In this document: piece by piece, positions 27,914 to 52,265 of the stretch
Layout: each line of letters begins with the position of its first letter
Position numbering within the stretch: position 1 is the first letter of the stretch
Assembly: GCA_042572295.1 (NCBI GenBank)
Contig: JBHPFA010000002.1
Span: forward strand, 180 to 64,179
Source: Nanobdellota archaeon
Lineage (GTDB): Archaea; Nanobdellota; Nanobdellia; Pacearchaeales; JAHJTO01
DNA: 64,000 bases
Direction: 5' to 3'
Translations under genes and position numbers: made by a program
Notes under the pieces: generated by a model
What the model was told of the DNA's origin: nothing
Seen by the model: only the letters and a program-made list of their open reading frames with translations
Databases searched by the model: none

Positions 27914-28456
27914 ATGGCTCGTGCAATTTTTTTAGATAGAGATGGAGTAGTATGTGAAGACACTAATATGTTTTACCAAGGAACCCCCCTCTTAAAACCA
28001 GAAGATTTCAAATGGATTCCTGGATCAAAAGAAGCATTAAAATTGCTTTCTAACTTAGAATTTAAAGTTGCTTTAGTTACAAATCAATCCATAATAAATA
28101 AAGGCCTTCTTAGCGAAGAAGAATTCTTGAAAACTAATAATTCCCTTTATGGGGAAATGTCAAAAAATAATATAAATATAGAAAGAATTTATTATTGTAA
28201 GCATACTCCTAAAGAAAATTGTGAATGTAGGAAACCAAAAATAGGACTATTAATCCAGGCAGAAAAAGAATTGGGAGTTTCTCTTAAAGATTGTTATGTT
28301 ATTGGAGACAAAACTTCTGATATAAAAATGGGGGAAGATGCTGGTTGTAAAACGATTCTCGTTAAAACAGGATATGGAGGTAGAGATGACTCTTTCGAGG
28401 TAAATCCAGATTTTATAATGGATAACCTTTATGAAGCCATTAAGATATTAAAATGA
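27914..28456 (+). CDS. gmhB: D-glycero-D-manno-heptose 1,7-bisphosphate phosphatase (GmhB, HAD family)
   Basis: AIFLDRDGVV is HAD motif I. VTNQS, the Zn-site-like CKHTPKENCECRKPKIGLL and GDKTSDIKMGEDAGC complete the match. 180 aa is the typical GmhB size. Confidence 0.8.
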   Translation: MARAIFLDRDGVVCEDTNMFYQGTPLLKPEDFKWIPGSKEALKLLSNLEFKVALVTNQSIINKGLLSEEEFLKTNNSLYGEMSKNNINIERIYYCKHTPKENCECRKPKIGLLIQAEKELGVSLKDCYVIGDKTSDIKMGEDAGCKTILVKTGYGGRDDSFEVNPDFIMDNLYEAIKILK

Positions 28457-30516
28457 AAGCACTAATACTTGCTGGAGGTTTTGGAACAAGATTAAAAGAA
28501 ATTACTAAAGGTGTTCCTAAACCAATGGCACCTATTGCAGGCAAACCCTTTTTACACCACCAAATAAGACTACTTAGAGAACAAGGAATTACAGATATAG
28601 TCCTTGCAGTGCATTATATGAGTGATAAGATAAAAGCATATTTTGGAAATGGAAAGAGACATGGCGTAGATATTTCTTATGCTGAAGAAGAAATGCCTTT
28701 GGGAACAGGTGGAGCAATAAGAAATGCAAAAAGATATCTCGGAAATAATAAATTTGCCGTATTTAATGGAGATACTTATACTGGGATGAGTATTAAGAAC
28801 TTTAATAAATTTCATGAAGAAGTTGGTGAAGACTTTAGCATGGCAGTAACTTCTCATAATGAACCAGAACATCATGAGATTATTGAAATAAAGGACAATA
28901 TGGTAAAAACTCTTCATGAAAGAGGAAAATGTCCAAAAAATCTTGAATGCTTAATAAATAGTGGGGCCTATTTATTGGAACCAAACATATTTGATTATAT
29001 CGAAGAAGGAAGAAATATTTCTCTTGAAAAGGAAGTTTTTCCGAGAATTGTTGGTGAAGGTAAATTAGCTGCTTATAAACATACAGAGTATTTTATAGAT
29101 ATTGGTAGACCTGAAACTTATAAACAATTCAAAAAAGAAATGGTTAATGCCATGTTAATGAAAAAAACAGATTCTATAAGGAGTGCTATGAAAAGAATGG
29201 ACCGAAATGAAGAAGGTCTTGTATTTATTGTAGATGAAAACGAAAAACTAACAGGGATTGTAACCCCACATTTTATCAATAGTGCATTTATTAATGGGAA
29301 AACAAACCTCGAAGATAAACTTGAAAAAGTAATGCTTACTGAAGGCTTGGCTTTTGGAAATGAAAGTGATTCTCCTGAAAAAATAGCAGAAATAATGCTT
29401 CCCCGTACAAATAGGCTTCCGATACTTAATTCTCAAGGAAAAATTACAGACATAGTTTACAGACAAGAGGTATTGGGACCAAAAGAGTCTCCGACCTATA
29501 GGGCAATTTCTCCTTTAAGAATAAGTTTTTCAGGAGGGGGGACAGATAAAGAAGATTATTTCACAAGATTTGGTACAGGGGTTGTGATAAATGCGACAAT
29601 TGACAAATATTGTCATGCGACCACCAAACTAAGGCATGATAAATTGATAAGCATAAATCCTGGTGGCGAAGATGAAGAATTGCTAGACTTGAAAAAGGAA
29701 AAATTTGAATATAACGGCAGGTGGGATCTTGCAAAAGCAGTCGTTAAAGTGATGAATCCTGATTTTGGATTCGATCTTCATGCTTATAACGATGTTCCTC
29801 CAGGAAGAGGACTTGGTTCTTCTGGAAGTTTTGCAGTAATGCTTACTGAATTGATTGGACAAATGCGTGGAGAATACTTAACAAATGATCAAATAGCTAA
29901 ATTAGCAAGAAAAGCTGAAATAGAAGAATTAAAAATAAAAGGCGGATGGCAAGACCAATATGCTGCAAAAGTGGGGGGCTTTAATTTAATGGAATTTTCA
30001 CAAAATAAAATAACTCCTTCTTCACTTGCACTTTCTCCAGAAGTTGTAAGAGAGTTAGAAGAGAGCCTATTGCTCTGTTATATTGGAAAAACACATAATT
30101 CTGGAGAAATACATGCTGAACAAGAAAAGAATTTTCAAAAAGATGAAAAAAGAATACGTGGGGGTCTTGAAAAGTTAACTTCTATCGCAACGATTATAAG
30201 AGATTCTCTAGTTTCTAAAAATCCTTCAAAAGTTGGAGAGATTGGGAATTATTTACATGAAGCTTGGTTAATTAAAAAGGGGTTAAGTGGATCTATTTCT
30301 AATAATGAAATAGATGATTTGTATAACCTTGGATTAAAAAATGGGGCTACTGGGGGGAAACTTCTTGGAGCAGGAAACGGGGGATATCTTCTCTTCTTTT
30401 CACCTCCTGAGAGAAAAAGTTTGTTGGAAAAAGAACTATATAAAAATAAAAGAGAAATAATGAAGTTCCATTTTGAGCGACAACCTGCAGGAACACAGGT
30501 TTGGCCAGTCTATTAA
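28453..30516 (+). CDS. Tri-domain fusion: sugar-1-P nucleotidyltransferase (HddC-like) + CBS pair + GHMP sugar kinase (HddA-like)
   Basis: The N-terminal [34 protein letters not shown] is the NTP-transferase domain. The middle [31 protein letters not shown]...[15 protein letters not shown] is a CBS pair. The C-terminal [12 protein letters not shown] and [15 protein letters not shown] are the GHMP kinase domain. It overlaps gmhB by 4 nt. Confidence 0.8.
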   Translation: [687 protein letters not shown]

Positions 30517-31436: not shown

Positions 31437-32003
31437 ATGGATGCTCGATTAAAAAGTGACAAATTAAGATTTAAACTCATAAATAGATTCTTAATCGGGA
31501 AAGATATTTTGGATATTGGATCTTGCGAAGGATTCTTACACAGATTACTTGTTGAGAATAATCCTAATAAAAAGATTTTTACATTAGATTCTAATCAGAA
31601 GGCAGATTATTCATTTAGTTTAGATAAACCCAAAAAAATAAAAAAGAAATTTGACACAATTGTTGCCGGGGAAGTTATAGAACACCTCGAATCACCCATT
31701 AAATTTGTTAGATATTGTAAAAGCCTACTTAAGAATAAGGGGAGACTTATAATAACTACTCCTAACGCCATAGGCCTGCAATATTTAAGGAATCCTGGTT
31801 GGTGTGTCCATTACAAAGGTTATCGGGGCCACACCCAAGCATTTACAAAAGATATGATAAAAAGGATTTGTGAAGATGAAAAGTTAAAGGTTATCCAGGA
31901 AAAATATATTAATGCTTTTTGGATGGGCAATCCCTTGAAATACTTGTCTTGGATAATAAAAAGATTAAGACCAGATATAATGGTTGTGGCCGAAAAAATT
32001 TAA
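31437..32003 (+). CDS. Class I SAM-dependent methyltransferase
   Basis: Contains ILDIGSCEGFLHRLL and VAGEVIEHLESP. I prefer ATG 31437, 1 nt after the upstream stop, over the ORF-track TTG 31380, which would overlap the GT2 gene by 56 nt. Confidence 0.7.
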   Translation: MDARLKSDKLRFKLINRFLIGKDILDIGSCEGFLHRLLVENNPNKKIFTLDSNQKADYSFSLDKPKKIKKKFDTIVAGEVIEHLESPIKFVRYCKSLLKNKGRLIITTPNAIGLQYLRNPGWCVHYKGYRGHTQAFTKDMIKRICEDEKLKVIQEKYINAFWMGNPLKYLSWIIKRLRPDIMVVAEKI

Positions 32004-32022: not shown

Positions 32023-32802
32023 TTATAGTTTTTTCTTCGTACTTATGTTCCCTATTTTTCTATATATTAAGACCAAGTTTTTAAGAAATACTATAGGAGT
32101 TATTATTGACATCAATATGAGATACGTCCCAGGGATGTTGAAGACTATTGTTATAAATAAGAATGAAAAGGGGTTATTGGGCCTTAATAACTCCATAGTA
32201 TAATCCTTTACTGTTTTTATTAATCCTTTTTTCTGACCATAGGCTGTGGCAACCATATAGCTCTCTCTCATCTTGTATATTAAATCAAGTCTTTTTTCAT
32301 TTGCAAAAGTTTCGTATACTTTAAGTTTGTTGAGATTATCTAATAACAAAAAGATTGAGGTAGAGATACCTAAATACAAATAAGCAATATTTCCATTAGT
32401 GTTATAAATCCCCCACCCTAATGCCAGTACTAATAACCCTCTGTGGATATAGTGGAAAAGCCTATCAAGATATGTTCCACCAATAGTAGTTATTTTTTTT
32501 GCTTTTGCGATTTCTCCATCAACATAATCTAGTAATACTGCAAAATGATACAAAATGGCTCCAAAAACCATATAAGAATATCCTCCGAGACCTATAAAAA
32601 AACATGCAACAACTCCTAAAAATCCCCAAGTAAAACTTATTTGATTTGGTGTTAAAGGAGTAAATCTTGCAAAAATGTATGCGACATAACTTGAAAAAGG
32701 TCCTAGAATTCGAATGTTTATGGGGTGTTTACCCCAATCATCTGATGCATCTTTTATTTGCTGTAAAGTAATTTTCTTATCCATTCTTAAACAAGCCCTC
32801 AC
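32023..32802 (-). CDS. CDP-alcohol phosphotransferase-family membrane protein
   Basis: Polytopic. LDYVDGEIAKAKKITTIGGTYLDRLFH matches D-x2-DG-x2-A(R/K)-x8-G-x3-D-x3-(D), with His in place of the last Asp. It overlaps the upstream rSAM gene by 4 nt. Confidence 0.7.
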   Translation of the reverse strand: MRACLRMDKKITLQQIKDASDDWGKHPINIRILGPFSSYVAYIFARFTPLTPNQISFTWGFLGVVACFFIGLGGYSYMVFGAILYHFAVLLDYVDGEIAKAKKITTIGGTYLDRLFHYIHRGLLVLALGWGIYNTNGNIAYLYLGISTSIFLLLDNLNKLKVYETFANEKRLDLIYKMRESYMVATAYGQKKGLIKTVKDYTMELLRPNNPFSFLFITIVFNIPGTYLILMSIITPIVFLKNLVLIYRKIGNISTKKKL

Positions 32803-34274
32803 ATATATTTTTTCTTATAAATTTTACTTAACTCCAAAAATGCTTCATTTCCTTTTTGATCAAACTTTTCTGCGAGTTCAATCTTTGGCCACATTTCTTT
32901 CTGGAATCTTACGTAAAGAGGGAATGTTCTTTGAAGTCCTTTAACTTGCTCCCTGTTTAACTGGGGCATGTCCAATCCTGCATCAGAACGATAATCTCCA
33001 GCATAACCTTCTCTTGGAATGTATCCCTTTTTGACCGAATGATCCCATAAAGGGGTTCCCCTATATGCACAAAAAATATTTGTTATAAGATTATCTGCCT
33101 GACAATCCCTATTAAGTTGAATTGTATCAAAAACAAGGTCTCTTGTTTCTTCTGGGAAGCCAATTATGTTATTTGCACAAATTCTTATTCCAGATTGTCT
33201 TGCTATTTCAAATGCATTGATTATCTTTTTGTTATCCACATAACGATTAAGCATTTTCCTCCTAAACTCATCATTTCCATGTTCTAAACCAATACTAATT
33301 CCTTCACAACCTATTTCTTTTAGTTTACTTACTCTATCAAGCTTAACTGTTTCTGGCCTTGTTTCAATCCAAAAAGGCAATCCAATTTCCTTGTATCCTT
33401 TAATAAAATCATCAAATCTTTTAGGACCCATTTGTAGAAAATTTTCTGCAACAAGGTAAAGATATTCTAAACCAAACTCTTCTTTCTTAGTTTTTAATTC
33501 ACTCATGAAATTCTCTATAGATCTTTGTCTAGGGTATCTTCCTATTCCTTTGTAATGTGCTTGTAATTTATCGTTACAACAGAATGCACAATGGTAAGTA
33601 CAACCCCTATTCAATTCTACAGGGCCACTTATGTTAATCTTTCCACCCATTGGCTTAAAGAACCTTTTCTTTTCATAAATACTCCAATCTTGGTCTGGTA
33701 ATGAATCAAGATCTGCAAGTGGAGCAAGAGGATTTTTTATTATGCCTCCATCTTTCTTTAACCAAATATTATCTGTACGAGAATAATCTTCTTTTGATCT
33801 TATTTTATTTGCAAGATCGACTATTGCCTTTTCACCTTCTCCAACACAAATCATATCGATAGAATCTTCTTTTAGAATATCTTCGAGACCCATTGTTGCA
33901 TGTATTCCCCCGACAATTTTGGGAGTTTTTAAGTCTTTGATGCTATTTAATAAATTTAAAGCAATATGGTAGGTAGGCTCTACGACTGAAACTCCTATTA
34001 AATCTGGTTTAAATGAATCTATAGATTTGTGAAAATCTTTTACAAGGTTTTCTTTCTTTTCAGTTATTCCAAGCTCCTCAAGATTGGTTTCTTTTACTTG
34101 AAGAGATTCGACTCTTGCTTCATCCCCTGTTTTTTCCCTTGTTCTATAAAAAGTTGTGTCAAACAAAGCTGTTTCATGTCCCGCTTTTTTTAAACAAGAA
34201 GACAAAAGAGAAGGTCCGATAGGTATTAAATTGTCCATAAAACTATTTGCATAAACTAGAAGTACTTTTGACAT
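32799..34274 (-). CDS. B12-binding-domain radical SAM enzyme (class B)
   Basis: An N-terminal B12-type domain (IGVSVVEPTY...IVGGIHATM) is followed by LNRGCTYHCAFCCN. Confidence 0.8.
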   Translation of the reverse strand: MSKVLLVYANSFMDNLIPIGPSLLSSCLKKAGHETALFDTTFYRTREKTGDEARVESLQVKETNLEELGITEKKENLVKDFHKSIDSFKPDLIGVSVVEPTYHIALNLLNSIKDLKTPKIVGGIHATMGLEDILKEDSIDMICVGEGEKAIVDLANKIRSKEDYSRTDNIWLKKDGGIIKNPLAPLADLDSLPDQDWSIYEKKRFFKPMGGKINISGPVELNRGCTYHCAFCCNDKLQAHYKGIGRYPRQRSIENFMSELKTKKEEFGLEYLYLVAENFLQMGPKRFDDFIKGYKEIGLPFWIETRPETVKLDRVSKLKEIGCEGISIGLEHGNDEFRRKMLNRYVDNKKIINAFEIARQSGIRICANNIIGFPEETRDLVFDTIQLNRDCQADNLITNIFCAYRGTPLWDHSVKKGYIPREGYAGDYRSDAGLDMPQLNREQVKGLQRTFPLYVRFQKEMWPKIELAEKFDQKGNEAFLELSKIYKKKYM

Positions 34275-34275
34275 T

Positions 34276-35766
34276 TTAAGTTACTCTTCCCAAAATTAAA
34301 TCTGCCTTATCTCCATGTCTTTTCAGAAATTGTTTGAACTTTGATTCCCATGCTCCAGGATTTTTCTTTTTTATATATTCATTGAAAGCTGTTGTTTTTT
34401 CTATAACTAATTTCTCAAGTTCTCCTGGAGAGATTATATAATCAGCAGAAGTTGGAGGAATTTTTATTGCAACATGTTTTAGGTCCCCTTTTACTCCAGA
34501 ATCAAGATATCCTTTTTCTTTACAGATTTTATGTAATCTGGAACCAATCATTGGATGAGCAAGGAAAAGAGAGGCGCTATCAAATCCTACTTCATAAGGA
34601 TAATTGAAAGTATCTTCCATCTCTTCTCTTTTTTCTCCAGGAAATCCAACGATGAACAACCCATGAACTTGTACACCCTTATCATGACATATATCAATCA
34701 AACTTTTTACTTTTTCTTTTGATGGGACCCTTTTGTTAATTATTTCTTTTCTAACTCTTTCATTTCCAGACTCCACAGCAAAAGTAAGTTGATAGGCTCC
34801 AGATTGGGCCATTAAATCTATCATCTCTTCATCCAATGTTTGAATCATAAGCCCATTTGGAGTACACCAAGAAAGATTATAGGGTTTTAATCTTTTAAAT
34901 AATTCTTTTGCCCTAGGTTTGTGTGCTGTTAAGTTATCATCTGCAAACTGTATTTCTTTAACTCCATAATTTTTTGTTAAGTCATCAATTTCTTCAATTA
35001 TGTTATCAACAGATCTTGTCCTAAAATGATGCCCCCAATAATTTACAGTAGAACAAAAAACACAATCAAATGGACAGCCCCTAGAAGTCATAACTTGTTC
35101 AACACGGTCTTCTTTTGAGAATGGGCCAAAGGGAACTCCTATTTGGATATAACGTTCCATATTTATCATATCTCTTGCAGGTTGGGGTAAGGCATTTAAG
35201 TCTTTTATCCTATTAATTAGTGGATTTACTATGGCTTCTCCATTTTTTTTATAGGCTACTCCATCAAAAGATAAGGAAGTCTCTCCTTTATTGAGAGCCT
35301 CAAGAAGGTTTAGTGCCCTATATTCTCCTTCCCCTATCACAACATAATCTACTGATTTGTTCATTATTGATTCTTTTGGAGCAAGTGAAGGGTGTATTCC
35401 TCCCAAAACAACTGAAATATCTGGATTTATTTTTTTAACTAAATTACAATGGTCTATAGCATTTTCTTGATGAGCTGAAAACATCGAAGTTATTCCCACT
35501 ATATCTGGATTATAATCCTTTATTCTGTTGGAAATTTCCTCTTTTGATAATCCATAGGTAAGATAATCTCCATTTATACTTGTTTTATGGTATCCCTCAC
35601 AAGGGGAGTCTAAAATTTTAACATCATAGCCCTTATCTCTTAATAATGCACCCATATATAAGAAACCTAGGGGGGTTGTAAGCCTTCTTGCACTATCTTT
35701 GGGCATAGTATTCGAAGGATTCAAAAATAAGACTTTTCTATATTTACCCTTTGCCATCTTAAACAC
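34276..35766 (-). CDS. B12-binding-domain radical SAM enzyme (class B)
   Basis: An N-terminal B12-type domain (VGITSMFSAH...VLGGIHPSL) is followed by TSRGCPFDCVFCS. Only 1 nt separates it from the downstream rSAM gene. Confidence 0.8.
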   Translation of the reverse strand: MFKMAKGKYRKVLFLNPSNTMPKDSARRLTTPLGFLYMGALLRDKGYDVKILDSPCEGYHKTSINGDYLTYGLSKEEISNRIKDYNPDIVGITSMFSAHQENAIDHCNLVKKINPDISVVLGGIHPSLAPKESIMNKSVDYVVIGEGEYRALNLLEALNKGETSLSFDGVAYKKNGEAIVNPLINRIKDLNALPQPARDMINMERYIQIGVPFGPFSKEDRVEQVMTSRGCPFDCVFCSTVNYWGHHFRTRSVDNIIEEIDDLTKNYGVKEIQFADDNLTAHKPRAKELFKRLKPYNLSWCTPNGLMIQTLDEEMIDLMAQSGAYQLTFAVESGNERVRKEIINKRVPSKEKVKSLIDICHDKGVQVHGLFIVGFPGEKREEMEDTFNYPYEVGFDSASLFLAHPMIGSRLHKICKEKGYLDSGVKGDLKHVAIKIPPTSADYIISPGELEKLVIEKTTAFNEYIKKKNPGAWESKFKQFLKRHGDKADLILGRVT

Positions 35767-35807
35767 TATAGAGGGTGCTTTTTAAACTTTACTTTAGAAT
35801 GACGACA

Positions 35808-36518
35808 CTATTGATTTTCTATCGATTTTAATGCTCTTGGGATGTCTTCTTTTTTGTCAATTTCAGACCATGCCAAGTTTAAATCTACAAAACCATACCA
35901 GGGAGAAATTTTGCTTGCATTATATGCACAATCCTCATAATATTCATCAAGATTTCCCTGTTCGAGGTTTTCTTTATGAAGATTAAACATAATATCCATA
36001 AATTCTTTTGAGAACTTTGAAATTCCTGTAAACTCAAAGGGGTTTTTTCCAGGATTCTTTTTTCCTAAATAAGTTATTTTATTTGATGAATCTAAAAGCA
36101 CATAAACTTCATCATTACTCCCACAACATTTTGTAAGAACTACTTTTGATTTATCATCTGAATTGATTAGCTTATTTATTATTTCCCCATCATAAACTAT
36201 GTCTCCATCAAGAACAAGACATTCCTTAGAATTTCTCAAAGCAGTATAAAGAGAATGCATACTCCCTGTTGTTTCATAAGATTTATTAAAGACATATGAA
36301 AGTTCTATGTCTCCCTTCCATTTTTCAAGATATTCTTTTATTATCTCTCCTTTGAATCCTAAAGCAATTGTTGCTTTTTTAACACCTGCTGCAGCAAGAG
36401 CTTCTAATGAATATTGAATAAGAGGTTTTCCTTTTATCTCTAAAAGGGGCTTCGGCTTTCCATTTAATATTTCTTTAAGCCTTGTCCCCATGCCTGCTGC
36501 TAAAATTATTGCTTCCAT
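35808..36518 (-). CDS. LicC/PntC-like nucleotidyl(cytidylyl)transferase
   Basis: MEAIILAAGMGTRLKEILNGKPKPLLEIKGKPLIQYSLE is the NTP-transferase G-loop. 236 aa. It starts 1 nt after the stop of the ppd-like gene. Confidence 0.75.
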   Translation of the reverse strand: MEAIILAAGMGTRLKEILNGKPKPLLEIKGKPLIQYSLEALAAAGVKKATIALGFKGEIIKEYLEKWKGDIELSYVFNKSYETTGSMHSLYTALRNSKECLVLDGDIVYDGEIINKLINSDDKSKVVLTKCCGSNDEVYVLLDSSNKITYLGKKNPGKNPFEFTGISKFSKEFMDIMFNLHKENLEQGNLDEYYEDCAYNASKISPWYGFVDLNLAWSEIDKKEDIPRALKSIENQ

Positions 36519-36519
36519 T

Positions 36520-37638
36520 TTAATCTCTTAAAGAACCCAAAAAAGATTCTTTGTTTTCTAAGGGTGTTTTTGTTGGCCTTCCAAGATCTTTTCTTGATTC
36601 AGAATTTACTTTTATTATTAGAAGAACTGGACCTTTCAAGTCATTGATTTTTTTCATTGATTCTTCTAATTCTTTTTTGGTTTCTATTTGTAATGCAAAA
36701 GCATAACCACTTGCTAAAGCTATACTTTTAAAATCAACATTATCTGAAATTGTTGGTTGTCCCCCTGTAGAACCGTGTGCCCCATTATCAAATATGAAAT
36801 GATAAAGATTATTTGGTTTTTGATAGCCTATTGTTGCCATTGATCCAAGCTGCATTAAGATTGCTCCATCGCCATCAAATGCAAAAATCTTCTTTTGTGG
36901 TTTTTGAAGAGCAACTGAATTGGCAAGAGAAGCTACACACCCCATGCTTCCGACCATGTAGAAGTCCTTTGGATCTTGATTTTTAGAAATACGGTATTCA
37001 AATAGCTCTCTTGAAGTTTTTCCAGTTGTAGATATTATTGCTTCCGAACCAGATGAAAAATCAATAATTGTTTTTATGGCTTCTTCCCTAGACATTTCAA
37101 AACTTCTTATTTTCTTAGTTTTAGTAGGATAATCATCAATAACTCCTTTTTTGATGATTAATGCCACTGGAGCTTGCTTTTTGAAGGCCTCTTCTTTCAT
37201 CTTAGCTATAACTTTTTCTGCTTCTTTAGGATTGTCTGGAAGAATTTCGTAAGGGACCTCTAAGCAGTCAAGAAGATTGAAAGTTATTCTTCCCATTTTT
37301 TTATGCTGTGGTTCATCTTTTTTCCCGGGCTCTCCCCTTAATCCTATCATTAAAAGCATTGGAATACTATAGACCTCTTTGTCACATAAAGAAGTAAGTG
37401 GATTTACACATTTTCCAAGGCCTGAATTCTGCATATATACTACACCTAATTTTCCTGTTGAGAGATTATATCCTGCACATATGGCTGTAGCCTCACATTC
37501 ATTTACTGCTACGATATTTGTTAAGTCTTTAGCTTCTGCTAAATAACTCATCCATCCCTTGAAAGTACTATCTGGAACTCCTGAAAAAAATGAAATTTCA
37601 TGTTTCTTAAATATCTCTGAAAGAGATGTAAAATCCAT
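36520..37638 (-). CDS. ppd: Phosphonopyruvate decarboxylase (ThDP-dependent)
   Basis: 372 aa, the short ThDP-enzyme size typical of Ppd. The ThDP motif is FDGDGAILMQLGSMATIG...IFDNGAHGSTGGQ. It sits next to PEP mutase and the AEP transaminase. Confidence 0.85.
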   Translation of the reverse strand: MDFTSLSEIFKKHEISFFSGVPDSTFKGWMSYLAEAKDLTNIVAVNECEATAICAGYNLSTGKLGVVYMQNSGLGKCVNPLTSLCDKEVYSIPMLLMIGLRGEPGKKDEPQHKKMGRITFNLLDCLEVPYEILPDNPKEAEKVIAKMKEEAFKKQAPVALIIKKGVIDDYPTKTKKIRSFEMSREEAIKTIIDFSSGSEAIISTTGKTSRELFEYRISKNQDPKDFYMVGSMGCVASLANSVALQKPQKKIFAFDGDGAILMQLGSMATIGYQKPNNLYHFIFDNGAHGSTGGQPTISDNVDFKSIALASGYAFALQIETKKELEESMKKINDLKGPVLLIIKVNSESRKDLGRPTKTPLENKESFLGSLRD

Positions 37639-37659
37639 ATAATCTCCATAAGCGATATG

Positions 37660-37667
37660 TTTATAAG
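37660..37667. promoter_or_regulatory. Single central TATA-like element (TTTATAAG) in the 50-nt ppd / AEP-transaminase divergent gap
   Basis: The box centre (37663.5) is 25.5 nt from the ppd start codon (CAT at 37636-37638) and 25.5 nt from ATG 37689. No other A/T box fits between the two genes. Confidence 0.4.
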
Positions 37668-37676
37668 TTTTTTTAT

Positions 37677-38789
37677 GTGTCTCGATTTATGGAAAGAAAG
37701 GTATTAATGACTCCTGGACCTGCTACGACTTCTCGAGGAGTGAAAGAAGCACAAGTAGTTCCAGATATTTGCCCTAGAGAGGAAGAATTTGGAAGAGTTA
37801 TGGAAGATATTAGGGAAAAATTGATTAGAATAGCTGGAGGAGATGAGAATTATGAGTGTGTTTTGATGGGGGGCCCTGGTACTGCTGGAATGGAAGCTAC
37901 GCTTAGTTCAGTTGTAAATGGCAAGGTTCTAATTATCAACAACGGAGCCTATGGTGAAAGGTTTGTCAAAATAGCTAAATGCTATAATATGGATTTTAAA
38001 GAAGTAGTCTTTGGTTGGGATGAAGAAATTAATCCTGAAAAAGTTGAGGCAGAGATTGATGAAGGAGTCAAATACATTGTTATGATCCATCATGAAACAA
38101 CTACTGGAATTCTTAATCCTGTTGAAAAGATTTCAGAATTAGCCAAAAAACATAATTGTGTTTTTATTCTTGATGCAATCTCTAGTTTTGCAGGTCTTCC
38201 TATAGATGTAAAAAAACTCAATGTTGATTTTCTTATATCTTCAAGTAATAAATGTATTCAAGGCATGCCAGGAATATGTTTTATTATATGCAAAAAAGAA
38301 GAACTTGTAAAATTAAAAGAGGTTCCAAAAAGAGGTTTTTACTTAAACATGTATTTGGAACATGAATATGTTAAATTAAAGAAACAAACAAGATTTACCC
38401 CTCCCGTTCAAACTGCCTATGCTTTAAAAAAGGCAATTGAAGAATTTTTTGAAGAGGGAGCTGAAAAAAGATATGGGAGATATCAAGAAAATAATAAGAT
38501 CCTTTTAGAAGGTATGGCAAAATTGGGTTTCAAAAAAATATTCCCTGACCATTTTGAGGAAAGTGGTTTGTTAACTACCTTTTTTGACCCAGATAATAAA
38601 AATTATTCATTTGATAAAATGCATGATGGTTTATACAAGAGAGGATTTACTATTTATCCTGGAAAAATAAAAGAAAAAACATTCAGACTTTCTAATTTAG
38701 GTGATTTGAATATAGAAGATATTAAAAAGTTTATTGAAGAACTTAAAAAAGTAATGAAAGAAATGGATTTAGAATTAATTAGCGCTTAA
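37677..38789 (+). CDS. phnW: 2-aminoethylphosphonate:pyruvate aminotransferase-like class V aminotransferase
   Basis: LMTPGPATTS, and SSSNKCIQGMPG carrying the PLP lysine. About 365 aa. The ORF track starts at GTG 37677; ATG 37689 (MERKVLMTPGP) is more likely. Confidence 0.8.
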   Translation: MSRFMERKVLMTPGPATTSRGVKEAQVVPDICPREEEFGRVMEDIREKLIRIAGGDENYECVLMGGPGTAGMEATLSSVVNGKVLIINNGAYGERFVKIAKCYNMDFKEVVFGWDEEINPEKVEAEIDEGVKYIVMIHHETTTGILNPVEKISELAKKHNCVFILDAISSFAGLPIDVKKLNVDFLISSSNKCIQGMPGICFIICKKEELVKLKEVPKRGFYLNMYLEHEYVKLKKQTRFTPPVQTAYALKKAIEEFFEEGAEKRYGRYQENNKILLEGMAKLGFKKIFPDHFEESGLLTTFFDPDNKNYSFDKMHDGLYKRGFTIYPGKIKEKTFRLSNLGDLNIEDIKKFIEELKKVMKEMDLELISA

Positions 38790-40496
38790 TATGTCTTTAA
38801 CAGAATAAAGATCTTTTTCATTGTGTATTTCTAACCATCCACCATGTGTTTCATGTATTGCGATTTTAAATCCCCGATTTATCATTTCTTGAATCATATC
38901 TGTATCAACAGCCTCTTTAAAATTAATTGAATCATGGAACCTTCCTTGAGAATTTTTTTTACAGTCTTCATAGACTTTGATAAGATTTTCTGCCCCCACT
39001 TTTGAAAACTTTGCAAGACCCAAATATTCGTGAGTCATTTCTTCAGTTGAAATATTTCTCCCAATCTTAAGGGCTTCATCATTGTGTGTCCTAAACCTTT
39101 GATATGCTAATTTATTGTTGTTCTTTGTAATAACACAATCTAATTTTTTATCGACTTCGTGCTCGTGGTAAAGATAAGAGTTATCTACAACAATAACAAT
39201 ATCTTCTTTTCTCCCAAGAATTTCTTTTACAAGTATTTCATCAAGAAGGATATCTGAATTAACATAAATAAACCCATTTTTCATCTTATCTTTCGCTTCC
39301 ATTATACTATGGAGCATTCCTTCTGAACTATAATTTTCTTTTTGAAAATAATTAATTCCTTTGAGGTTGAATTTTTCTTTTTGATAACCAATTATTACAT
39401 TAATATCATCCAACCCCTGTGCTTTAAACGCTGAGATTTGATGTTCCAATAAAGTTTTACCATTAATTTGAATTAGTGCTTTAGGAATATCTCCAGTAGA
39501 CTCAAAAGGTTGATGGGCCCCTGCTGCAGGAATTATCACTGTTGGTTTTGGAGATATTGATTTATCTTTTTCCTTAATATCAAGAAACCCTACTTTTTCA
39601 AAAACTTCTTTGGTTGTAACAATATAAGGATCTGCTTCAAGAGATCTTTTATTTTCCAAGATGATCCTTCCAACATTCTGCATTGCCTTATAAGAAGATC
39701 TCAACATATGGTTCGCATATATGACTACATTAAATCCTTTTTCTTTAAATTCCTCTTCATAAATAGAATTATAAGTTGTAGGAACACAAACAAGAGGTTT
39801 TTTAAGATTTAGTTCATGGCATAACTTTTTGTAGCCTTCTGCAAACTCAAAAATACCTTTAGGAGATATTGATTTTGAATGGATCATAATCCCATCCACT
39901 CCTGCTAGAAGGTATTTTCTTGCCCTGTATAAAGCATCTTCTACAGATTTCCCTGCAATAAGGCTTTCTATCCTTGCTATAATCATAAAATCTTTAGATC
40001 TTTGTATTTTTTTCCCAGTCATTATTTTGTTAGCAAATTTGTCTGGATCTTCTTGATCTTGGTTTGTTCCACCTTCAAGACTATTCCTTTTTGGAAATAT
40101 TTTATCTTCGATTATAATTGCGGAGACTCCTGTTTTTTCTAATTTAGGAATTAAATACTCAAAATGATGGATATCTCCCCCCGTATCCCCATCTACAATC
40201 ATAGGTTTATTAGTTACTTCAAGTATTTCTGAGATAGTTCTTAATCTTGAATCAAAACTGATTATTTCTATATCTGGATGCCCTTTAGAAGCGGAATCTG
40301 TTAGGCTGCTTTCCCAGAAAAAGTCAAATTCTTCAGATTTATCACATTTATCTTGAGTACAACATTTTAAATCGTTTACAATAAGGCCACTTAGAGCGTT
40401 ATGGACTTCCATACCCTTTATAAGTTTGTTAGATTTTAACAATTCTGATAATTTTCGTCTTCTCTCTTCAGGCGTTATTAGATGTCTTAAAGTCAT
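38775..40496 (-). CDS. pepM: Fusion protein: phosphoenolpyruvate mutase (N-terminal) + nucleotidyltransferase domain (C-terminal)
   Basis: The N-terminal ICL/PEP-mutase barrel carries the discriminating EDKxxxxxNS motif as AIIIEDKIFPKRNSLEG, plus MIVDGDTGGD. The C-terminal ~260 aa (TVIIPAAGAHQPFESTGDIPKALIQINGKTLLEHQI) form an NTP-transferase fold. Confidence 0.9.
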   Translation of the reverse strand: MTLRHLITPEERRRKLSELLKSNKLIKGMEVHNALSGLIVNDLKCCTQDKCDKSEEFDFFWESSLTDSASKGHPDIEIISFDSRLRTISEILEVTNKPMIVDGDTGGDIHHFEYLIPKLEKTGVSAIIIEDKIFPKRNSLEGGTNQDQEDPDKFANKIMTGKKIQRSKDFMIIARIESLIAGKSVEDALYRARKYLLAGVDGIMIHSKSISPKGIFEFAEGYKKLCHELNLKKPLVCVPTTYNSIYEEEFKEKGFNVVIYANHMLRSSYKAMQNVGRIILENKRSLEADPYIVTTKEVFEKVGFLDIKEKDKSISPKPTVIIPAAGAHQPFESTGDIPKALIQINGKTLLEHQISAFKAQGLDDINVIIGYQKEKFNLKGINYFQKENYSSEGMLHSIMEAKDKMKNGFIYVNSDILLDEILVKEILGRKEDIVIVVDNSYLYHEHEVDKKLDCVITKNNNKLAYQRFRTHNDEALKIGRNISTEEMTHEYLGLAKFSKVGAENLIKVYEDCKKNSQGRFHDSINFKEAVDTDMIQEMINRGFKIAIHETHGGWLEIHNEKDLYSVKDILSAN

Positions 40497-40530: not shown

Positions 40531-42111
40531 CTATACCTTGGCCATACTTTGTCTTTTTTTTGCCAATTTACTATTTATTGCATCAAGAATCATAAAGTCA
40601 TTCTTATCCAATCCCTTAAACAAAATGACTAATAATCCATAAGAAATTAAAAATAAAATGAAAAGTAAAATTAAAGAAAATAGATTAATTGTGAATAGAG
40701 ATCTTAGATAAACTAAAAATGCTGAGGCAATTATGCCTGCTAGAAAAATATTGATCATCTTTCTTCTGACAAAAATGTGTTTTAAATAATACTTTGATTG
40801 GGCGAGGAAAAGAAGGTTTAGGAATATTATGGAGATTAATGTTGCTAAAGCTGCACCATTTATTCCTAAAGAATTTTCTATGAACAGAACATAGGGCATA
40901 GGGACCAATATCGCATTAAGGATAACATTCATTATGAAGGCAAGAGTAATGTTAAACAATACCAGTTTGGATTTTCCAATTATATAGATTAGCTGGGTGG
41001 GGACTATAAAAACAGCCGAGATAAAAGCCCCTATTGCAAGAATTCTCAAGGCATTTGCTGCAGCAAGATACGCTGGACCAAATATTATATTGATTATTGC
41101 TCCAGGAAATAATATAATCAGTGAAAATGCAGTTATATTAATTAAAAATATCCACTTTGTAACTTGTTTACTTGTCTCAATTATCACCTTTGTTCTTTTC
41201 TTGGAATATTCCCTGCTTATTAAGGGGAAGAAAAGTTGCATGAACAATTCAGGAGCTATGGCTAATAATAAAGCTATTGGAACTGCTGCCTGATATATTC
41301 CTACTTCAACTACTGATTTATAGAAGCCTATAGCAAAGGTATCTACCCAATAGAGTAATATGAGTATCACTCCTGAAAACAAAAGTGGAAAAGAATAACT
41401 GAAAAAGAGTTTTCTTGTTTTTACTTTTTCTTTTTTATTCAAATCACTTTTAATAAAGAGCTCAGGTATTTTACGTTTAGAGACGAAATAAGACACCATT
41501 AAAACAACAATCATTCCAAATAAATAAGAAAGAATTGTAGAGCCCCCCTTAACACCCATAAAAATAAGTAATACAATAATAATGAATTTTGAAAGAGGAT
41601 TTATAATATTTGCTATAAATGAATGGATGGATATTTTTTCATAAGCCCTTAGTGCCCCTATAAATGGAGAGGTAAGCATTGTTGCAGGTATTATGAAACT
41701 TGCGACTTTAAAATAAAATATAAGTTGAGAGTTGTTGAAAACATTCAACGCAAGGGGTTCTGATAGAAAAAATAGTAATATCCCTGAAAGTATGCTTGAA
41801 AAGGTTAGAATTATCAAAGAAAGATTGAAGATATATGTAACCTTGTTAGACTTCCCTTTTGCACGATAAATCGGAATAAATCTTGCGAGACCCTCCGAAA
41901 GACCCAATGCTGCAACTGCTATGAACCATCCACTAATCATTAAAGCTATGGAAAATAAACCATAAACCTCTGGACCAAAATACCTTGCAATTATAACTCT
42001 GTATAAGTAACCTATGATTTTTGACAATACAAGACTTAGGAATACAATTCCAGAGGTTTTAACTAAAAGTTTTAAATTAAGATGTAGTCCCTCTTTTTGT
42101 TTACTGGCCAT
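40531..42111 (-). CDS. MOP-superfamily polysaccharide flippase (Wzx/RfbX-like)
   Basis: 526 aa with about 14 hydrophobic segments. The N-terminal RVIIARYFGPEVYGLFSIALMI is typical of polysaccharide biosynthesis (Polysacc_synt) proteins. Confidence 0.7.
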   Translation of the reverse strand: MASKQKEGLHLNLKLLVKTSGIVFLSLVLSKIIGYLYRVIIARYFGPEVYGLFSIALMISGWFIAVAALGLSEGLARFIPIYRAKGKSNKVTYIFNLSLIILTFSSILSGILLFFLSEPLALNVFNNSQLIFYFKVASFIIPATMLTSPFIGALRAYEKISIHSFIANIINPLSKFIIIVLLIFMGVKGGSTILSYLFGMIVVLMVSYFVSKRKIPELFIKSDLNKKEKVKTRKLFFSYSFPLLFSGVILILLYWVDTFAIGFYKSVVEVGIYQAAVPIALLLAIAPELFMQLFFPLISREYSKKRTKVIIETSKQVTKWIFLINITAFSLIILFPGAIINIIFGPAYLAAANALRILAIGAFISAVFIVPTQLIYIIGKSKLVLFNITLAFIMNVILNAILVPMPYVLFIENSLGINGAALATLISIIFLNLLFLAQSKYYLKHIFVRRKMINIFLAGIIASAFLVYLRSLFTINLFSLILLFILFLISYGLLVILFKGLDKNDFMILDAINSKLAKKRQSMAKV

Positions 42112-46145: not shown

Positions 46146-47969
46146 TTATTCTTCTTGCTTATAAATCAAATAAAAAGGGAATATTGTAGAGATTATTGCT
46201 AAAAAGATCATAGAAAACAAGACAACGTATGCAAAAAAATTCAATGTTTTGTCCAAAATCCCTTTGACCTCATAATAGTCATATGCTTGGGTAGGATTAC
46301 GGTCCCTAGGTAGATCATAAAAGAAAAAACTATGTGTATTTTCCACTTGTGCTAAAATTTCTGGATTCATAAGGATTTGGGTTTCATAAATTCTAAAATA
46401 TGGTGTGCTTTTAGATTCATACCTTCTATTTTTTGGAGAACCACCTCCAAAGATATCTGTTCTTTGATTTACATCACTAAATAAGTTTACAAAATTTTCA
46501 GCAGATTCATTAAGTTCTGGTTGATTTTTGATAGTCCCCCAACCACAATCATCTGGTACACATTCTATAAAGAATGTATGAACATTAACTTTCTGAGAAT
46601 CACTGCTTTGATCAGAGTTCATAACTTGAGAAAAGGTATTTGCATTAATGTACTTTTTACCACTTAACATCCAGGAAGTGTATCCTGTATAAATCCTAGA
46701 GTCTACAATAACAAGATTATTATCACCAATTTTTTCTGAAAAAGAAGTTATTTTTTCGACAGCACTTTTTGAGGACAAGCTTTCTCCAAGTTGATTAATT
46801 GAAAAAATCATCATTAAAAGTAAAAGAATAATCAACACATATTTGCCTTTGGAGAATTTTCTTAAAAATTTATTTAAATTAAATAATGAAATTCCCCCAA
46901 AAATTGCAAATAAGGGAATAAAAGAAGTATAATGTGTTTGTAAAAGAACAGATAAAATAATTATGGGTAATGGAAATAGTATCAATCCCAAAATGAATAA
47001 TTTTCTCAAATCCTTTCTATTGATTTTAGAGAAATAAACTAACCCTATCCCAAAAATTCCAAGTATTAAATTAAAAGGATCTTCTTCGAAAAAATAATGG
47101 CCAAAAACTGTTTTTACTCCTGAAAAGATTAAGGGTAGTTGAAACCCTTTCTCGTGTGCTAAACCTGGACCTTGATAAAATTCCTTATTAATATCAAGAT
47201 ACATTGAAAAGGGAAGATCCACTAATTGTTTTTCTTTAAAAAGAAAATAATTATGTGCTAAAACTGGCATGAAACAAACTAATAAAATAAGGCCAAAGAT
47301 AAAAAATCTTTTTAGATTCTCTTTAAAGAGATTCTTATCTAATTTATAATTTTTATAAAGTATTATTAACATGAAAAAGGCGAAGACTAAATCAAATAGG
47401 GGTGTAATAATCTTGGCTAAAGAAGCGATTCCCAAAAAAAGTGCGGCCAAAAGAGAAATCTTGCCACTTGATTTATACTCCTTTAAAAATAAGTAAGTCC
47501 CTATTAAAATAAAGAACATCATTGTTTGATCCATATAAACTGCAGTCCAATGTATGTGGAAAGGAGATATGGCCATTAAAAATGAGGCAAATAATCCTAC
47601 TTTTCTATTAAAAAGTTCTGATCCAAGTAGGTATACTAAAATAATTGATAATGAGCCAAAAATAATTGATAAAAATCTCGCACTAAATAAATGGACTCCA
47701 AAGATCTTGTAAGAAATGTCTGTTAAGTAAAACCATACTGGACCTTGAGTCATAACACTAAGTGGTTTTAGCTCAGAAATACCTAAAGCATGTGAACCAT
47801 GGACTACTTCATCAGGAACTGGTGGAACATGAGAAGCCACCAGAAATCTTAAGAGGATACCCAATATCAAAATAAGAATAACCCATTTTCTTTTATCACT
47901 TGAAAAAAGAAAATCTATTGCTTTATTGATAAAACCTTCATTTGTCTTACTAGAGATTTCTCCAGCCAT
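46146..47969 (-). CDS. GT-C fold glycosyltransferase (ArnT/PMT-like)
   Basis: 607 aa, polytopic. A first-loop acidic motif (VPPVPDEVVHGSH), a soluble domain and a C-terminal TM. Confidence 0.6.
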   Translation of the reverse strand: MAGEISSKTNEGFINKAIDFLFSSDKRKWVILILILGILLRFLVASHVPPVPDEVVHGSHALGISELKPLSVMTQGPVWFYLTDISYKIFGVHLFSARFLSIIFGSLSIILVYLLGSELFNRKVGLFASFLMAISPFHIHWTAVYMDQTMMFFILIGTYLFLKEYKSSGKISLLAALFLGIASLAKIITPLFDLVFAFFMLIILYKNYKLDKNLFKENLKRFFIFGLILLVCFMPVLAHNYFLFKEKQLVDLPFSMYLDINKEFYQGPGLAHEKGFQLPLIFSGVKTVFGHYFFEEDPFNLILGIFGIGLVYFSKINRKDLRKLFILGLILFPLPIIILSVLLQTHYTSFIPLFAIFGGISLFNLNKFLRKFSKGKYVLIILLLLMMIFSINQLGESLSSKSAVEKITSFSEKIGDNNLVIVDSRIYTGYTSWMLSGKKYINANTFSQVMNSDQSSDSQKVNVHTFFIECVPDDCGWGTIKNQPELNESAENFVNLFSDVNQRTDIFGGGSPKNRRYESKSTPYFRIYETQILMNPEILAQVENTHSFFFYDLPRDRNPTQAYDYYEVKGILDKTLNFFAYVVLFSMIFLAIISTIFPFYLIYKQEE

Positions 47970-51389: not shown

Positions 51390-52265
51390 ATGTGGGCTCG
51401 TCAGGCATGTGATAAAACAAAAATGTTTGTAAGATTAAAAAAACTTTGGGGACAGAAGAGATATCTTAAAAGATTTAGCCAGATAACAAAATATTTTACT
51501 TGTAGAGTTAAATCTATGGAGCTTGCAGTGCTTTATGCTTGTAACCAAAATTGTCCAGGGTGTTATGCTGGTGACTTGAAAAGTCCGGCCTACCTAACTA
51601 GGGATCAAATTAGAGAGATTATGAGGAAGTATAGGCCCTTCCATGTAAACATTACGGGTGGAGAGCCCCTTTTAAGAAAAGATATTTTTGAGATTATAGA
51701 AGGGATGCCGAAAGGAGTTGTAATCAGCCTTGTTACGAATGGGAAACTACTTACTAAAGAAAAATTAAGAAAATTGAAAAAGGCAGGACTTAATACACTT
51801 CAATTAAGCTATGGGGCAAATTATGATAACAATCTTGAAGTCATTAAGTCCAAAGCTGCAAGAGGAGTAAATATTTGTTTAAGTGTCACAAATACAAAGA
51901 AAAATAAAAAATATATTGAACAGGCCATTAAAGAGGCTAAATTAAATAAATGGCATGTTCTGTACAATCTTCCCTCTGGAAGTATAGCTAAGAATTTTGA
52001 TAGAGAGACTTACTTCAAATACAGAAATAATCCACTTATTAGGGAAGATAATATGTTCTGGGCTGGATGGAATAAGTGTCCTGCCGGAAACGAAAAAATA
52101 TATGTAACTGCAAAAAATGAATTAATGCCTTGTGATAGGTTACATGATGTATATCCTAATCTAAAAACCATGAGAAAAGAATTTAAACGTAAACCTTGGT
52201 GTAGTAGATTAGGAGATGTAAGAAATGAAGAATCCACTTGTGTCGGTTGTGCTTCCTGCACATAA
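51390..52265 (+). CDS. Radical SAM enzyme (small, non-B12 type)
   Basis: AVLYACNQNCPGCYAGD provides CxxxCxxC. ITGGEPLLRKD is the SAM-binding GGE motif. There are C-terminal Cys residues (CPAGN, MPCD, CVGCASC). The TATA-like GGTTTAAAAGTG lies ~30 nt upstream of ATG 51390. Confidence 0.7.
   Translation: MWARQACDKTKMFVRLKKLWGQKRYLKRFSQITKYFTCRVKSMELAVLYACNQNCPGCYAGDLKSPAYLTRDQIREIMRKYRPFHVNITGGEPLLRKDIFEIIEGMPKGVVISLVTNGKLLTKEKLRKLKKAGLNTLQLSYGANYDNNLEVIKSKAARGVNICLSVTNTKKNKKYIEQAIKEAKLNKWHVLYNLPSGSIAKNFDRETYFKYRNNPLIREDNMFWAGWNKCPAGNEKIYVTAKNELMPCDRLHDVYPNLKTMRKEFKRKPWCSRLGDVRNEESTCVGCASCT

Follow-up and report, generated by a model that had tools for sequence, protein, structure and literature searches.

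A variant CDP-alcohol phosphotransferase-fold protein at the end of a minus-strand gene run

We analyzed a 64-kb stretch of DNA from a Nanobdellota archaeon (contig JBHPFA010000002.1; hereafter the window), examining one minus-strand gene run in six-frame translation and in the list of open reading frames (ORFs). The subject of this study is the last gene of that run, which encodes a predicted membrane transferase. The ORF spans 32023..32802 on the minus strand, 259 codons counted from a GTG start, and its product contains the segment DYVDGEIAKAKKITTIGGTYLDRLFH, which reads D-x2-DG-x2-AK-x8-G-x3-D-x3-H (residues 92–117 of the long ORF, nt 32452..32529). The pattern D..DG..A[RK]x8G...D has a single match across the six-frame translation of the window. 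The ORF list and the six-frame translation bear out both the ORF and the signature given in a preliminary description of this DNA. They also agree with its placement of the gene as the last in the run, after genes for phosphonopyruvate decarboxylase (Ppd), a nucleotidyltransferase (NTPT) and two radical S-adenosylmethionine (rSAM) enzymes. A convergent gene, ending at 32003, comes after it.

The gene had been described as overlapping the preceding rSAM gene by 4 nt, which holds only if translation starts at GTG 32802. The NCBI record of the protein (P0001, 253 aa) is annotated 'CDP-alcohol phosphatidyltransferase family protein [Nanoarchaeota archaeon]'. Its sequence starts where the ORF has Met7 ('MDKKIT'), and so do those of all homologues. 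Because these N-termini match Met7, the start is likely ATG 32784, which lies 14 nt beyond the stop of the rSAM gene upstream and has a GAGG about 12 nt to its 5' side. We rejected the 4-nt overlap as an artefact of the GTG-extended ORF; the corrected gap is 14 nt, and the tight linkage of the transferase gene to the rSAM gene still stands. The gene thus delimited (32023..32784, minus strand) encodes a 253-aa putative CMP-phosphonate phosphonotransferase, a membrane enzyme whose CDP-alcohol phosphotransferase fold is predicted from PF01066 and structural comparison.

Assignment to the CDP-alcohol phosphotransferase family is upheld. The protein matches PF01066 (CDP-OH_P_transf) over residues 51–154 at 30.1 bits (cut-off 22), the same domain is precomputed for nearly all homologues, and AF2299 is the best match by both sequence and fold. 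The only significant sequence matches in the PDB are AF2299 (4o6m) and IPCT-DIPPS (4mnd). An AF2 model built from 22 family sequences is all-helical (pLDDT 87.4, pTM 0.84), and the hydropathy is that of a polytopic protein. When the model was compared with the PDB by Foldseek, the top 24 matches were all CDP-alcohol phosphotransferases, with AF2299 first (E 2e-6, TM-score 0.58), followed by PIPS, DIPPS and PgsA. The predicted fold has six transmembrane (TM) helices and carries the signature on TM2–TM3. A P(D/N)xx(T/S) motif, to which a role in cytosine binding has been assigned (PMC4634129), is found at the start of TM1 as P46-N-Q-I-S50 (32635..32649, minus strand) by regular expression and in the family alignment A2, where P46 and N47 never vary and S50 reaches at least 90% conservation.

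The HMM match, the fold and the cytosine motif thus place the protein in the PF01066 superfamily, and no characterized equivalog fits. Its scores do not reach the NCBIfam equivalog cut-offs for DIPP synthase (NF041135, 35.2 against 580), archaetidylinositol-phosphate synthase (NF040950, 31.7 against 180) or PIP synthase (NF045883, 22.9 against 170). Nor does it match the eukaryotic type represented by CHPT1 and CEPT1, which has about 10 TM helices: the protein has 253 aa, and the Foldseek E values to these structures are 0.33 (8ero), 4.6 (8gyw) and 5.2 (9uet).

The fourth signature aspartate is replaced across a large lineage

The eight residues of the family signature, D1xxD2G1xxAR...G2xxxD3xxxD4, have been called absolutely conserved (PMC4634129). 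D4 has been assigned as the catalytic base and as a ligand of the second metal (PMC4634129; PMC6506517), and its replacement in MtPIPS (D93N) nearly abolishes activity (PMC4634129). The window protein retains six of the eight residues. Aligned to AF2299 and DIPPS, its signature is D86-x2-D89-G90-x2-A93-K94-x8-G103-x3-D107-x3-H111 in the numbering of the 253-aa protein (32452..32529, minus strand). The HMMER alignment with AF2299 and IPCT-DIPPS, a comparison that the preliminary description had proposed, places H111 on their fourth Asp and K94 on their Arg.

A profile search of 1.84 billion representatives returned 1,838 proteins at E < 1e-10. Among the relatives fetched from outside the protein's own family (n=203), the D4 position is His in 133, Asp in 36 and Ser in seven. 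The 33-member DPANN family to which the protein belongs has Ser in 16 members, His in 12, Thr in two, Ala in two and Ile in one; Asp occurs in none. Lys in place of Arg is rarer, being found in 3/33 family members (the window protein and its two closest relatives) and in two unrelated proteins. The H-type clade is homologous to the window's family over its full length (hhalign probability 100%, E 4e-54, 239 columns) and includes proteins from bacteria (WOR-3, Cloacimonetes, Parcubacteria, Chloroflexota, Actinocorallia) and from DPANN archaea. The signature had been called a variant; a D4 other than Asp is indeed a real departure from the textbook pattern, but within a large clade most members have His there.

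Other positions are strongly conserved. D1, D2, G1, G2, D3 and an Arg four residues past D4 (R115) are invariant across the 33 family members, and regular-expression searches find a PNxxS-type motif in 26 of them. A further motif specific to the family, D149-N-L-N-K-L-K-V-Y-E158 (32311..32340, minus strand), is matched in 25 of the 33; it sits in the helix spanning residues 133–162 of the AF2 model, at the predicted cytoplasmic end of TM4. In alignment A2, K153, K155 and E158 are invariant and D149 and N150 are at least 90% conserved. We consider this motif a candidate acceptor pocket or source of an alternative base. Because pairwise dN/dS values against orthologues are roughly 0.1–0.4, a rough range with dS near saturation, the transferase gene appears to be under purifying selection. 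From these sequence patterns we conclude that the family is probably active and does not use D4 as the base; the pattern of D4 replacement is what an active lineage with a changed mechanism would show, and does not look like decay. His may act as the base where it is present, with another residue or a base-free nucleophile elsewhere.

We also considered whether His at D4 is an adaptation to phosphonate donors, and rejected this. H-type relatives, among them proteins from Actinocorallia, WOR-3 and Pacearchaeota, occur with no phosphoenolpyruvate (PEP) mutase (Ppm) gene nearby. A transferase encoded on a Sulfitobacter plasmid beside a class-V aminotransferase and a cytidylyltransferase retains Asp, and the state of D4 (H, S or T) is independent of the type of phosphonate cluster in which the gene lies.

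Two loci outside the DPANN family carry further transferase genes. A cell-wall cluster of Actinocorallia populi (L019, PVZV01000013.1, 5200–10903) contains genes for IspD, a 526-aa CDP-OH_P_transf protein with canonical D4, DUF5941, an NTP transferase, Fe-ADH_2, an H-type CDP-OH_P_transf protein, a family 2 glycosyltransferase (GT2) and LytR-CpsA-Psr. The side-by-side occurrence of D-type and H-type transferases suggests that they have different roles. On the plasmid of Sulfitobacter sp. SK012 (L024, NZ_CP025806, 7817–10632), the module comprises the class-V aminotransferase, a CDP-alcohol phosphatidyltransferase with canonical Asp and a phosphocholine cytidylyltransferase-family protein, and the annotation shows no PEP mutase within 9 kb. 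Such a module may represent a salvage route that places imported 2-aminoethylphosphonate (AEP) on a lipid or glycan. A tblastn search of plasmids returned only distant relatives, in which D4 is canonical.

The transferase gene lies in a phosphonate biosynthesis cluster

Upstream of the transferase gene the window carries a cluster for phosphonate biosynthesis. The PEP mutase gene (38775..40496, minus strand; TIGR02320, 338.6 bits against 319.55) encodes an EDKIFPKRNS motif and has PEP mutases as its PDB matches; a MobA-like NTP transferase domain is fused at the C-terminus of its product (PF12804, residues 321–439). The 2-aminoethylphosphonate aminotransferase (AEPT) gene (37677..38789, plus strand) scores 395.8 bits against a cut-off of 360.8 (TIGR03301), and the Ppd gene (36520..37638, minus strand) 442 bits against 312.5 (TIGR03297). 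The stand-alone NTPT gene (35808..36518, minus strand; PF12804/PF00483) encodes a PntC-like predicted CMP-AEP synthase. Its best PDB match is 6pd1 (E 3e-24, residues 2–233), the structure of Tde1415, a phosphonate-specific cytidylyltransferase PntC crystallized with CMP-AEP (PMC6697681). The window thus contains Ppm (EDKxxxxxNS), Ppd and AEPT at equivalog level together with a PntC-type cytidylyltransferase.

Between the NTPT gene and the transferase gene are two genes for B12-binding rSAM enzymes. The product of the first (rSAM1; 34276..35766, minus strand) scores 373.8 bits against a cut-off of 575 with NF038361, which makes it a relative, not an equivalog, of the NCBIfam 'Sden_1168 family P-methyltransferase'; a literature search on 'Sden_1168' found nothing. 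The second (rSAM2; 32799..34274, minus strand; PF02310 and PF04055) is directly upstream of the transferase gene. The AEPT gene interrupts the minus-strand cluster and shares 15 nt at its 3' end with the 3' end of the Ppm gene. Because of this opposite-strand gene, the transferase most likely belongs to a five-gene unit, Ppd-NTPT-rSAM1-rSAM2-transferase, with gaps of 1, 41, 1 and 14 nt.

Phosphonate genes accompany the transferase in other DPANN archaea

The transferase family is rare, with about 34 clusters in 5.8 billion proteins. A locus search based on A2 found three loci in 185,579 species genomes (Woesearchaeota, Nanoarchaeota and Nanoarchaeia) and eight in metagenome contigs. Most neighborhoods were taken from the contigs encoding homologues and were compared by Pfam tables and tblastn; we refer to the loci by number (L001, L002 and so on). 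Orthologues, with 43–71% identity, are confined to Woese-, Nano- and Pacearchaeota. In loci with sufficiently long flanks, phosphonate genes accompany the transferase, with L002 as the exception. The transferase adjoins genes for Ppm, Ppd, NTPT and B12-rSAM enzymes in L005, L006, L008 and L015–L018, and part of this set in L001, L002, L004 and L012.

Two cluster designs can be distinguished. The AEP-type design, found in the window, L015, L016, L017, L012 and partly in L001, consists of the Ppm-NTP transferase fusion, AEPT, Ppd, NTP transferase, rSAM1, rSAM2 and the transferase. The other design resembles the fosfomycin pathway and points to hydroxyethylphosphonate (HEP). It is found in L018 (1055–9896), L005 (1772–9267) and L006 (2796–9339), with a Fom1-like CTP_transf_like-Ppm fusion (TIGR02320, 403 bits), Ppd, a PsrA-related Fe-ADH, B12-rSAM enzymes and a second small cytidylyltransferase. 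These HEP-type loci imply that archaea have a CMP-hydroxyethyl- or CMP-hydroxypropyl-phosphonate chemistry whose final enzyme is a membrane transferase, not an epoxidase. Orthologues of rSAM2 are encoded directly upstream of the transferase in L001, L002, L004, L012 and L015–L017 (54–74% identity; about 39% in the HEP-type loci), and those of rSAM1 have 40–65% identity.

In L001 a 636-aa fusion of an NTP transferase and a class-V aminotransferase (808–2718) has the same domain pair as the PntC-AEPT protein Tde1415 and Borg Cobalt 319. Genes for PGK, a 2-hydroxyacid dehydrogenase, a semialdehyde dehydrogenase and two alcohol dehydrogenases lie between the fusion and the transferase gene. In the literature that we searched, no paper other than the Borg preprint ties DPANN to phosphonate biosynthesis.

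The wider neighborhood is a glycosylation island

The phosphonate cluster lies within an island of nearly 50 kb for protein glycosylation or surface glycans, at about 5.8–53 kb of the window. The island contains STT3/AglB (5858..8515), a Glycos_transf_4 initiating enzyme (8497..9495), two Wzx-type flippases, glycosyltransferases of families GT1, GT2, GT9 and GT25, sugar-nucleotide enzymes, RmlC- and RmlD-like enzymes, methyltransferases including a C-methyltransferase, a PMT_2 enzyme and several further rSAM enzymes. We saw no lipid-biosynthesis genes in the window, where the ORFs at 5.8–53 kb were scanned, or in the related loci.

Some of these neighbors recur with the transferase. A Wzx-type (Polysacc_synt) flippase is encoded immediately upstream of Ppm (40531..42111, minus strand; PF01943, 86 bits), and flippases of this type occur in all seven of the long loci. 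The flippase gene lies upstream of Ppm in the window and L015, and is directly downstream of the transferase gene and convergent with it in L001, L002, L016 and L018; in L017 one rSAM gene lies between them. Orthologues of the window flippase have 43–59% identity in L002, L008, L015 and L016. The PMT_2 membrane glycosyltransferase, of the GT-C type (46146..47969, minus strand; PF13231, 61 bits), has homologues of 33–37% identity in L002, L006, L016 and L017. A small rSAM gene (51390..52265) and a GT2 gene (52225..53043), both assigned by Pfam and spanning 51390..53043 on the plus strand, have orthologues of 57–62% identity beside phosphonate or transferase genes in L002, L004, L005, L006, L011 and L016. 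In L001, STT3 is two genes from the transferase. The distant H-type relatives are also found in glycan clusters, without Ppm, next to genes for NTP transferases, Wzy_C, PMT_2, LPG_synthase_TM, GT1 and flippases.

The density of rSAM genes in the window is unusual, with four B12-binding enzymes, a SPASM-type enzyme and a small one (13688–15097, 19842–20885, 22297–23625, 32799–35766 and 51390–52265). L002 (1–17514) has seven B12-binding rSAM genes in 20 kb. A possibility is that the rSAM enzymes of the island C-methylate sugars or phosphonates. A 687-aa NTP_transferase-CBS-GHMP-kinase fusion is encoded at 28453..30516, with a HAD phosphatase gene before it.

Predicted donor, acceptor and mechanism

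The preliminary description proposed that the enzyme takes a CMP-phosphonate made upstream and attaches it to a lipid alcohol, or else to a polyprenol or glycan hydroxyl. The first half of this proposal agrees with our results: in independent DPANN contigs the orthologues are almost always encoded next to genes for Ppm, Ppd, cytidylyltransferases and B12-rSAM enzymes, and over its full length the stand-alone NTP transferase of the window is homologous to Tde1415/PntC, a CMP-AEP synthase. The strongest argument is that a cytidylyl-phosphonate is what the AEP-type and HEP-type clusters have in common; a CMP-phosphonate donor is therefore well supported by synteny. A B12-rSAM enzyme that methylates a CMP-bound phosphonate is already known: Fom3 acts on cytidylyl-HEP (PMC8158854). 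By analogy, the true donor may be a methylated CMP-AEP or CMP-HEP.

The emphasis on an archaeol head group and on remodeling of host lipids is not sustained, as the partners of the transferase are a Wzx-type flippase, GT2 and PMT_2 enzymes and an AglB/STT3 island, and the protein is of the short six-TM type. The glycan hydroxyl, which had been listed as an alternative, is better supported by the gene context and by the likeness to the six-TM AF2299, DIPPS and PIPS. This short class has been associated with hydrophilic acceptors, and the extra helices of the lipid-alcohol enzymes are thought to house lipid acceptors (PMC4634129). Because the flippase, glycosyltransferase, PMT_2 and STT3 context and the short six-TM architecture coincide, we favor a sugar hydroxyl on a polyprenyl-linked intermediate as the probable acceptor, with a lipid alcohol or a polyprenyl phosphate as the other candidates.

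A pathway consistent with these observations would run as follows. Ppm, Ppd and the AEP transaminase, all equivalog-level matches, make AEP, and the PntC-type cytidylyltransferases would convert it to CMP-AEP. The two B12-rSAM enzymes probably add a methyl group while the phosphonate is bound to CMP, a reaction that Fom3 carries out on CMP-HEP. The transferase would bind the cytidine nucleotide through PNQIS and, with Mg2+, through D86, D89, G90, A93, K94, G103 and D107. An acceptor hydroxyl, most likely on the sugar of a glycan or monosaccharide that a polyprenyl (di)phosphate carries on the cytoplasmic side of the membrane, would attack the phosphonate phosphorus with release of CMP. Since D4 is H, S, T, A or I in the family, the base would have to be His or another conserved residue; besides His where present, the candidates in the DNLNKLKVYE motif are D149 or E158, acting with R115, which is invariant. 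The Wzx-type flippase would export the product, and GT-C or AglB-type enzymes would deliver it to the cell surface.

Weighing the acceptor

We give roughly even chances to the reading in which the transferase moves the phosphonate from its CMP carrier to the sugar of a polyprenyl-linked glycan, which is then flipped to yield a phosphonoglycan or phosphono-glycoprotein and not a bulk phosphonolipid. Several points weigh against it. The assignments of donor and acceptor both derive from gene neighborhood. Two loci are incomplete: L002 encodes both rSAM orthologues and no Ppm within 10 kb, and L001 shows only the AEPT-NTPT fusion and rSAM genes. The neighboring GT2s match generic GT2s in the PDB, with DPMS, GtrB and ArnC weak, so that a Dol-P-sugar synthase is not assignable. 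Without D4 the enzyme might catalyze some other reaction, as the MtPIPS D93N result (PMC4634129) illustrates. Bacterial clusters that combine Ppm with a CDP-alcohol phosphotransferase have moreover been read as phosphonolipid clusters (PMC8942020, PMC5987646).

This last point leads to an alternative that we consider unlikely: a phosphonolipid synthase that transfers CMP-AEP or a derivative to archaeol, to host-scavenged diacylglycerol or to a polyprenol hydroxyl, giving a head group resistant to phosphatases and phospholipases. Its donor logic is identical. A precedent in its favor is that eukaryotic AEP lipids are made from CMP-AEP by members of the CDP-alcohol phosphotransferase superfamily. 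Bacterial clusters with Ppm, PntC, AEPT and a CDP-alcohol phosphotransferase ('Burkholderiales_CDP-OH' and Nostoc) are predicted to make phosphonolipids (PMC8942020; PMC5987646), but these clusters are themselves so far without a characterized phosphonolipid (PMC8942020). The transferase keeps company with a flippase, a glycosyltransferase and a GT-C enzyme, whereas lipid-synthesis genes were not seen in the window or the related loci; the wider H-type clade is located in polysaccharide clusters; and a 253-aa protein of the six-TM type that reaches CEPT1 and CHPT1 only at Foldseek E 0.3–5 is a poor fit to the lipid-alcohol enzymes. A variant in which the acceptor is the phosphate oxygen of a polyprenyl phosphate, which would need no base, strikes us as quite improbable. 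Here the product would be a lipid-linked pyrophosphonate (Dol-P-AEP), flipped by Wzx and used as donor by a GT-C-like (PMT_2) enzyme. Such an acceptor would account for the free variation at D4 (H, S, T, A, I), for the invariant basic residues R115, K153 and K155, and for the fact that a flippase always accompanies the transferase and PMT_2 often does. The case is purely inferential, however, and a sugar-hydroxyl acceptor with an alternative base fits the same data. We know of no lipid-linked phosphonyl donor of the Dol-P-AEP kind, and PMT_2 and GT-C enzymes move sugars, not phosph(on)yl groups.

Two further explanations do without phosphonate transfer. The protein could be an ordinary CDP-alcohol transferase, using CDP-glycerol, CDP-inositol or CDP-ethanolamine, that merely lies in a glycan island; distant H-type relatives without Ppm, encoded next to NTP transferases and Fe-ADH/G1PDH-like genes, speak for this, and in NCBIfam the protein shows weak similarity to DIPPS, AIPS and PIPS. 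We hold this to be very doubtful: the orthologous family stays by the Ppm, Ppd and rSAM genes through rearrangements and in two cluster designs, in the Ppd operon 14 nt separate the gene from the rSAM gene before it, we found in that operon no gene for making another CDP-alcohol, and the NCBIfam scores are far under every equivalog cut-off. Finally, a D4 that is missing and an Arg that is Lys might indicate a catalytically dead protein or one with a non-enzymatic role as scaffold or regulator. D4 is never Asp in the family, and the description of D4 as absolutely conserved together with the near loss of PIPS activity in D93N (PMC4634129; PMC6506517) would agree with such a role. Yet the three metal-binding Asp residues, both Gly, the Ala, the R/K and PNxxS are all retained, invariant or nearly so, the gene is under apparently strong purifying selection, and the H state is common to about two thirds of some 200 related bacterial and archaeal proteins, which makes a dead protein extremely improbable.

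Implications

A broader proposal, which we advance tentatively and consider possible rather than probable, joins these threads: a large D4-less lineage would work with a different base, a one-metal mechanism or a base-free nucleophile, and in DPANN would install rSAM-methylated aminoalkyl- or hydroxyalkyl-phosphonates on surface glycans or glycoproteins. If phosphonate transfer to surface glycans is true, archaea would have their first defined phosphonyl transferase and their first defined phosphonoglycan pathway. In the literature that we searched we found no biochemical characterization of the transfer of an activated phosphonate onto a cell-surface molecule, and Rice et al. 2019 (PMC6697681) and Li & Horsman 2022 (PMC8942020) both state that little is known about this step. 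The 253-aa family is a compact and genetically well-delimited candidate for it, and its two natural donor contexts, AEP and HEP/Fom-like, make substrate tests straightforward. The family also indicates that the textbook eight-residue signature is not universal, which bears on the role of catalytic base proposed for D4. If DPANN surface glycans carry phosphatase-resistant C-P compounds, this would be relevant to the host-attached lifestyle and to environmental sources of phosphonates.

Comparison with known systems

Among characterized structures, AF2299 (4o6m/4o6n/4q7c) is closest. It is the best sequence match (E 2e-3), its TM2–TM3 signature aligns with that of the window protein, and it has six TM helices and belongs to the class with soluble CDP-alcohol donors. 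AF2299 differs in having the full set of D1–D4, the Arg and an N-terminal cytosolic domain, whereas the window protein has K and H and lacks that domain. Between TM4 and TM5 the window protein also carries about 45 inserted residues. To our knowledge, the physiological substrates of AF2299 are themselves not known. IPCT-DIPPS (4mnd), AIP synthase and the PIP synthases share with the window protein the superfamily, a TM module of similar size and a hydrophilic acceptor (Foldseek E 1e-3 to 1e-2), but they use inositol phosphate and the canonical D4 as base and second-metal ligand (PMC4634129, PMC6506517), and inositol genes are not present here. CHPT1, CEPT1 and the classical CMP-AEP:diacylglycerol AEP transferase activity are alike in superfamily and in the chemistry first proposed for the window protein; CHPT1 and CEPT1 differ in their roughly 10 TM helices, their lipid acceptor and their retention of all four Asp residues.

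In gene content, the window resembles the bacterial Group 1 phosphonolipid clusters (Burkholderiales_CDP-OH and the Nostoc II clade; Yu et al. 2013, Li & Horsman 2022; PMC8942020; PMC5987646). The region 32023..40496 contains the corresponding set of a Ppm-PntC fusion, a second PntC, AEPT and a CDP-alcohol phosphotransferase, and Ppd is likewise common to both. The Group 1 clusters also have a 2-oxoglutarate/Fe(II) oxygenase for 1-hydroxylation, giving 1-hydroxy-AEP, and phospholipid genes; neither the oxygenase nor a second phospholipid-synthesis gene was found among the ORFs scanned at 5.8–53 kb. In their place the window has two B12-rSAM enzymes, a Wzx flippase and a glycosylation island, in an archaeon and with D4 lost. 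Borg 'Cobalt' genes 319–320 are similar in another way: a PntC-AEPT fusion is followed by a short CDP-alcohol phosphotransferase without a cytosolic domain, near flippases, on an archaeal-associated element and in a glycoconjugate context (bioRxiv 10.1101/2024.11.05.622173). For the Borg protein an 'exactly conserved active site' is reported (bioRxiv 10.1101/2024.11.05.622173), which the window protein does not have.

Bacterial phosphonoglycan clusters are associated with LicD-like phosphotransferases, encoded near PntC genes (PMC6697681). These are unrelated in fold and probably do the same job, the transfer of a CMP-activated head group to a glycan, as Rice et al. 2019 inferred (PMC6697681); Pfam scans detected no LicD homologue in the operon. 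With the early fosfomycin pathway (Fom1, a CyTase-Ppm fusion, Fom2, FomC and Fom3), L018, L005 and L006 have in common the CTP_transf_like-Ppm fusion, Ppd, an Fe-ADH and B12-rSAM enzymes; the DPANN version ends in a membrane transferase, not in an epoxidase and hydrolase, and the window uses AEP, not HEP. CDP-alcohol phosphatidyltransferase genes in Ppm/PntC/AEPT clusters have been published before, without a characterized product (PMC8942020, PMC5987646, bioRxiv 10.1101/2024.11.05.622173). New here are the occurrence in DPANN hosts, the absence of D4, the constant association with two B12-rSAM enzymes and a flippase, and the finding that the clusters come in AEP and Fom-like versions.

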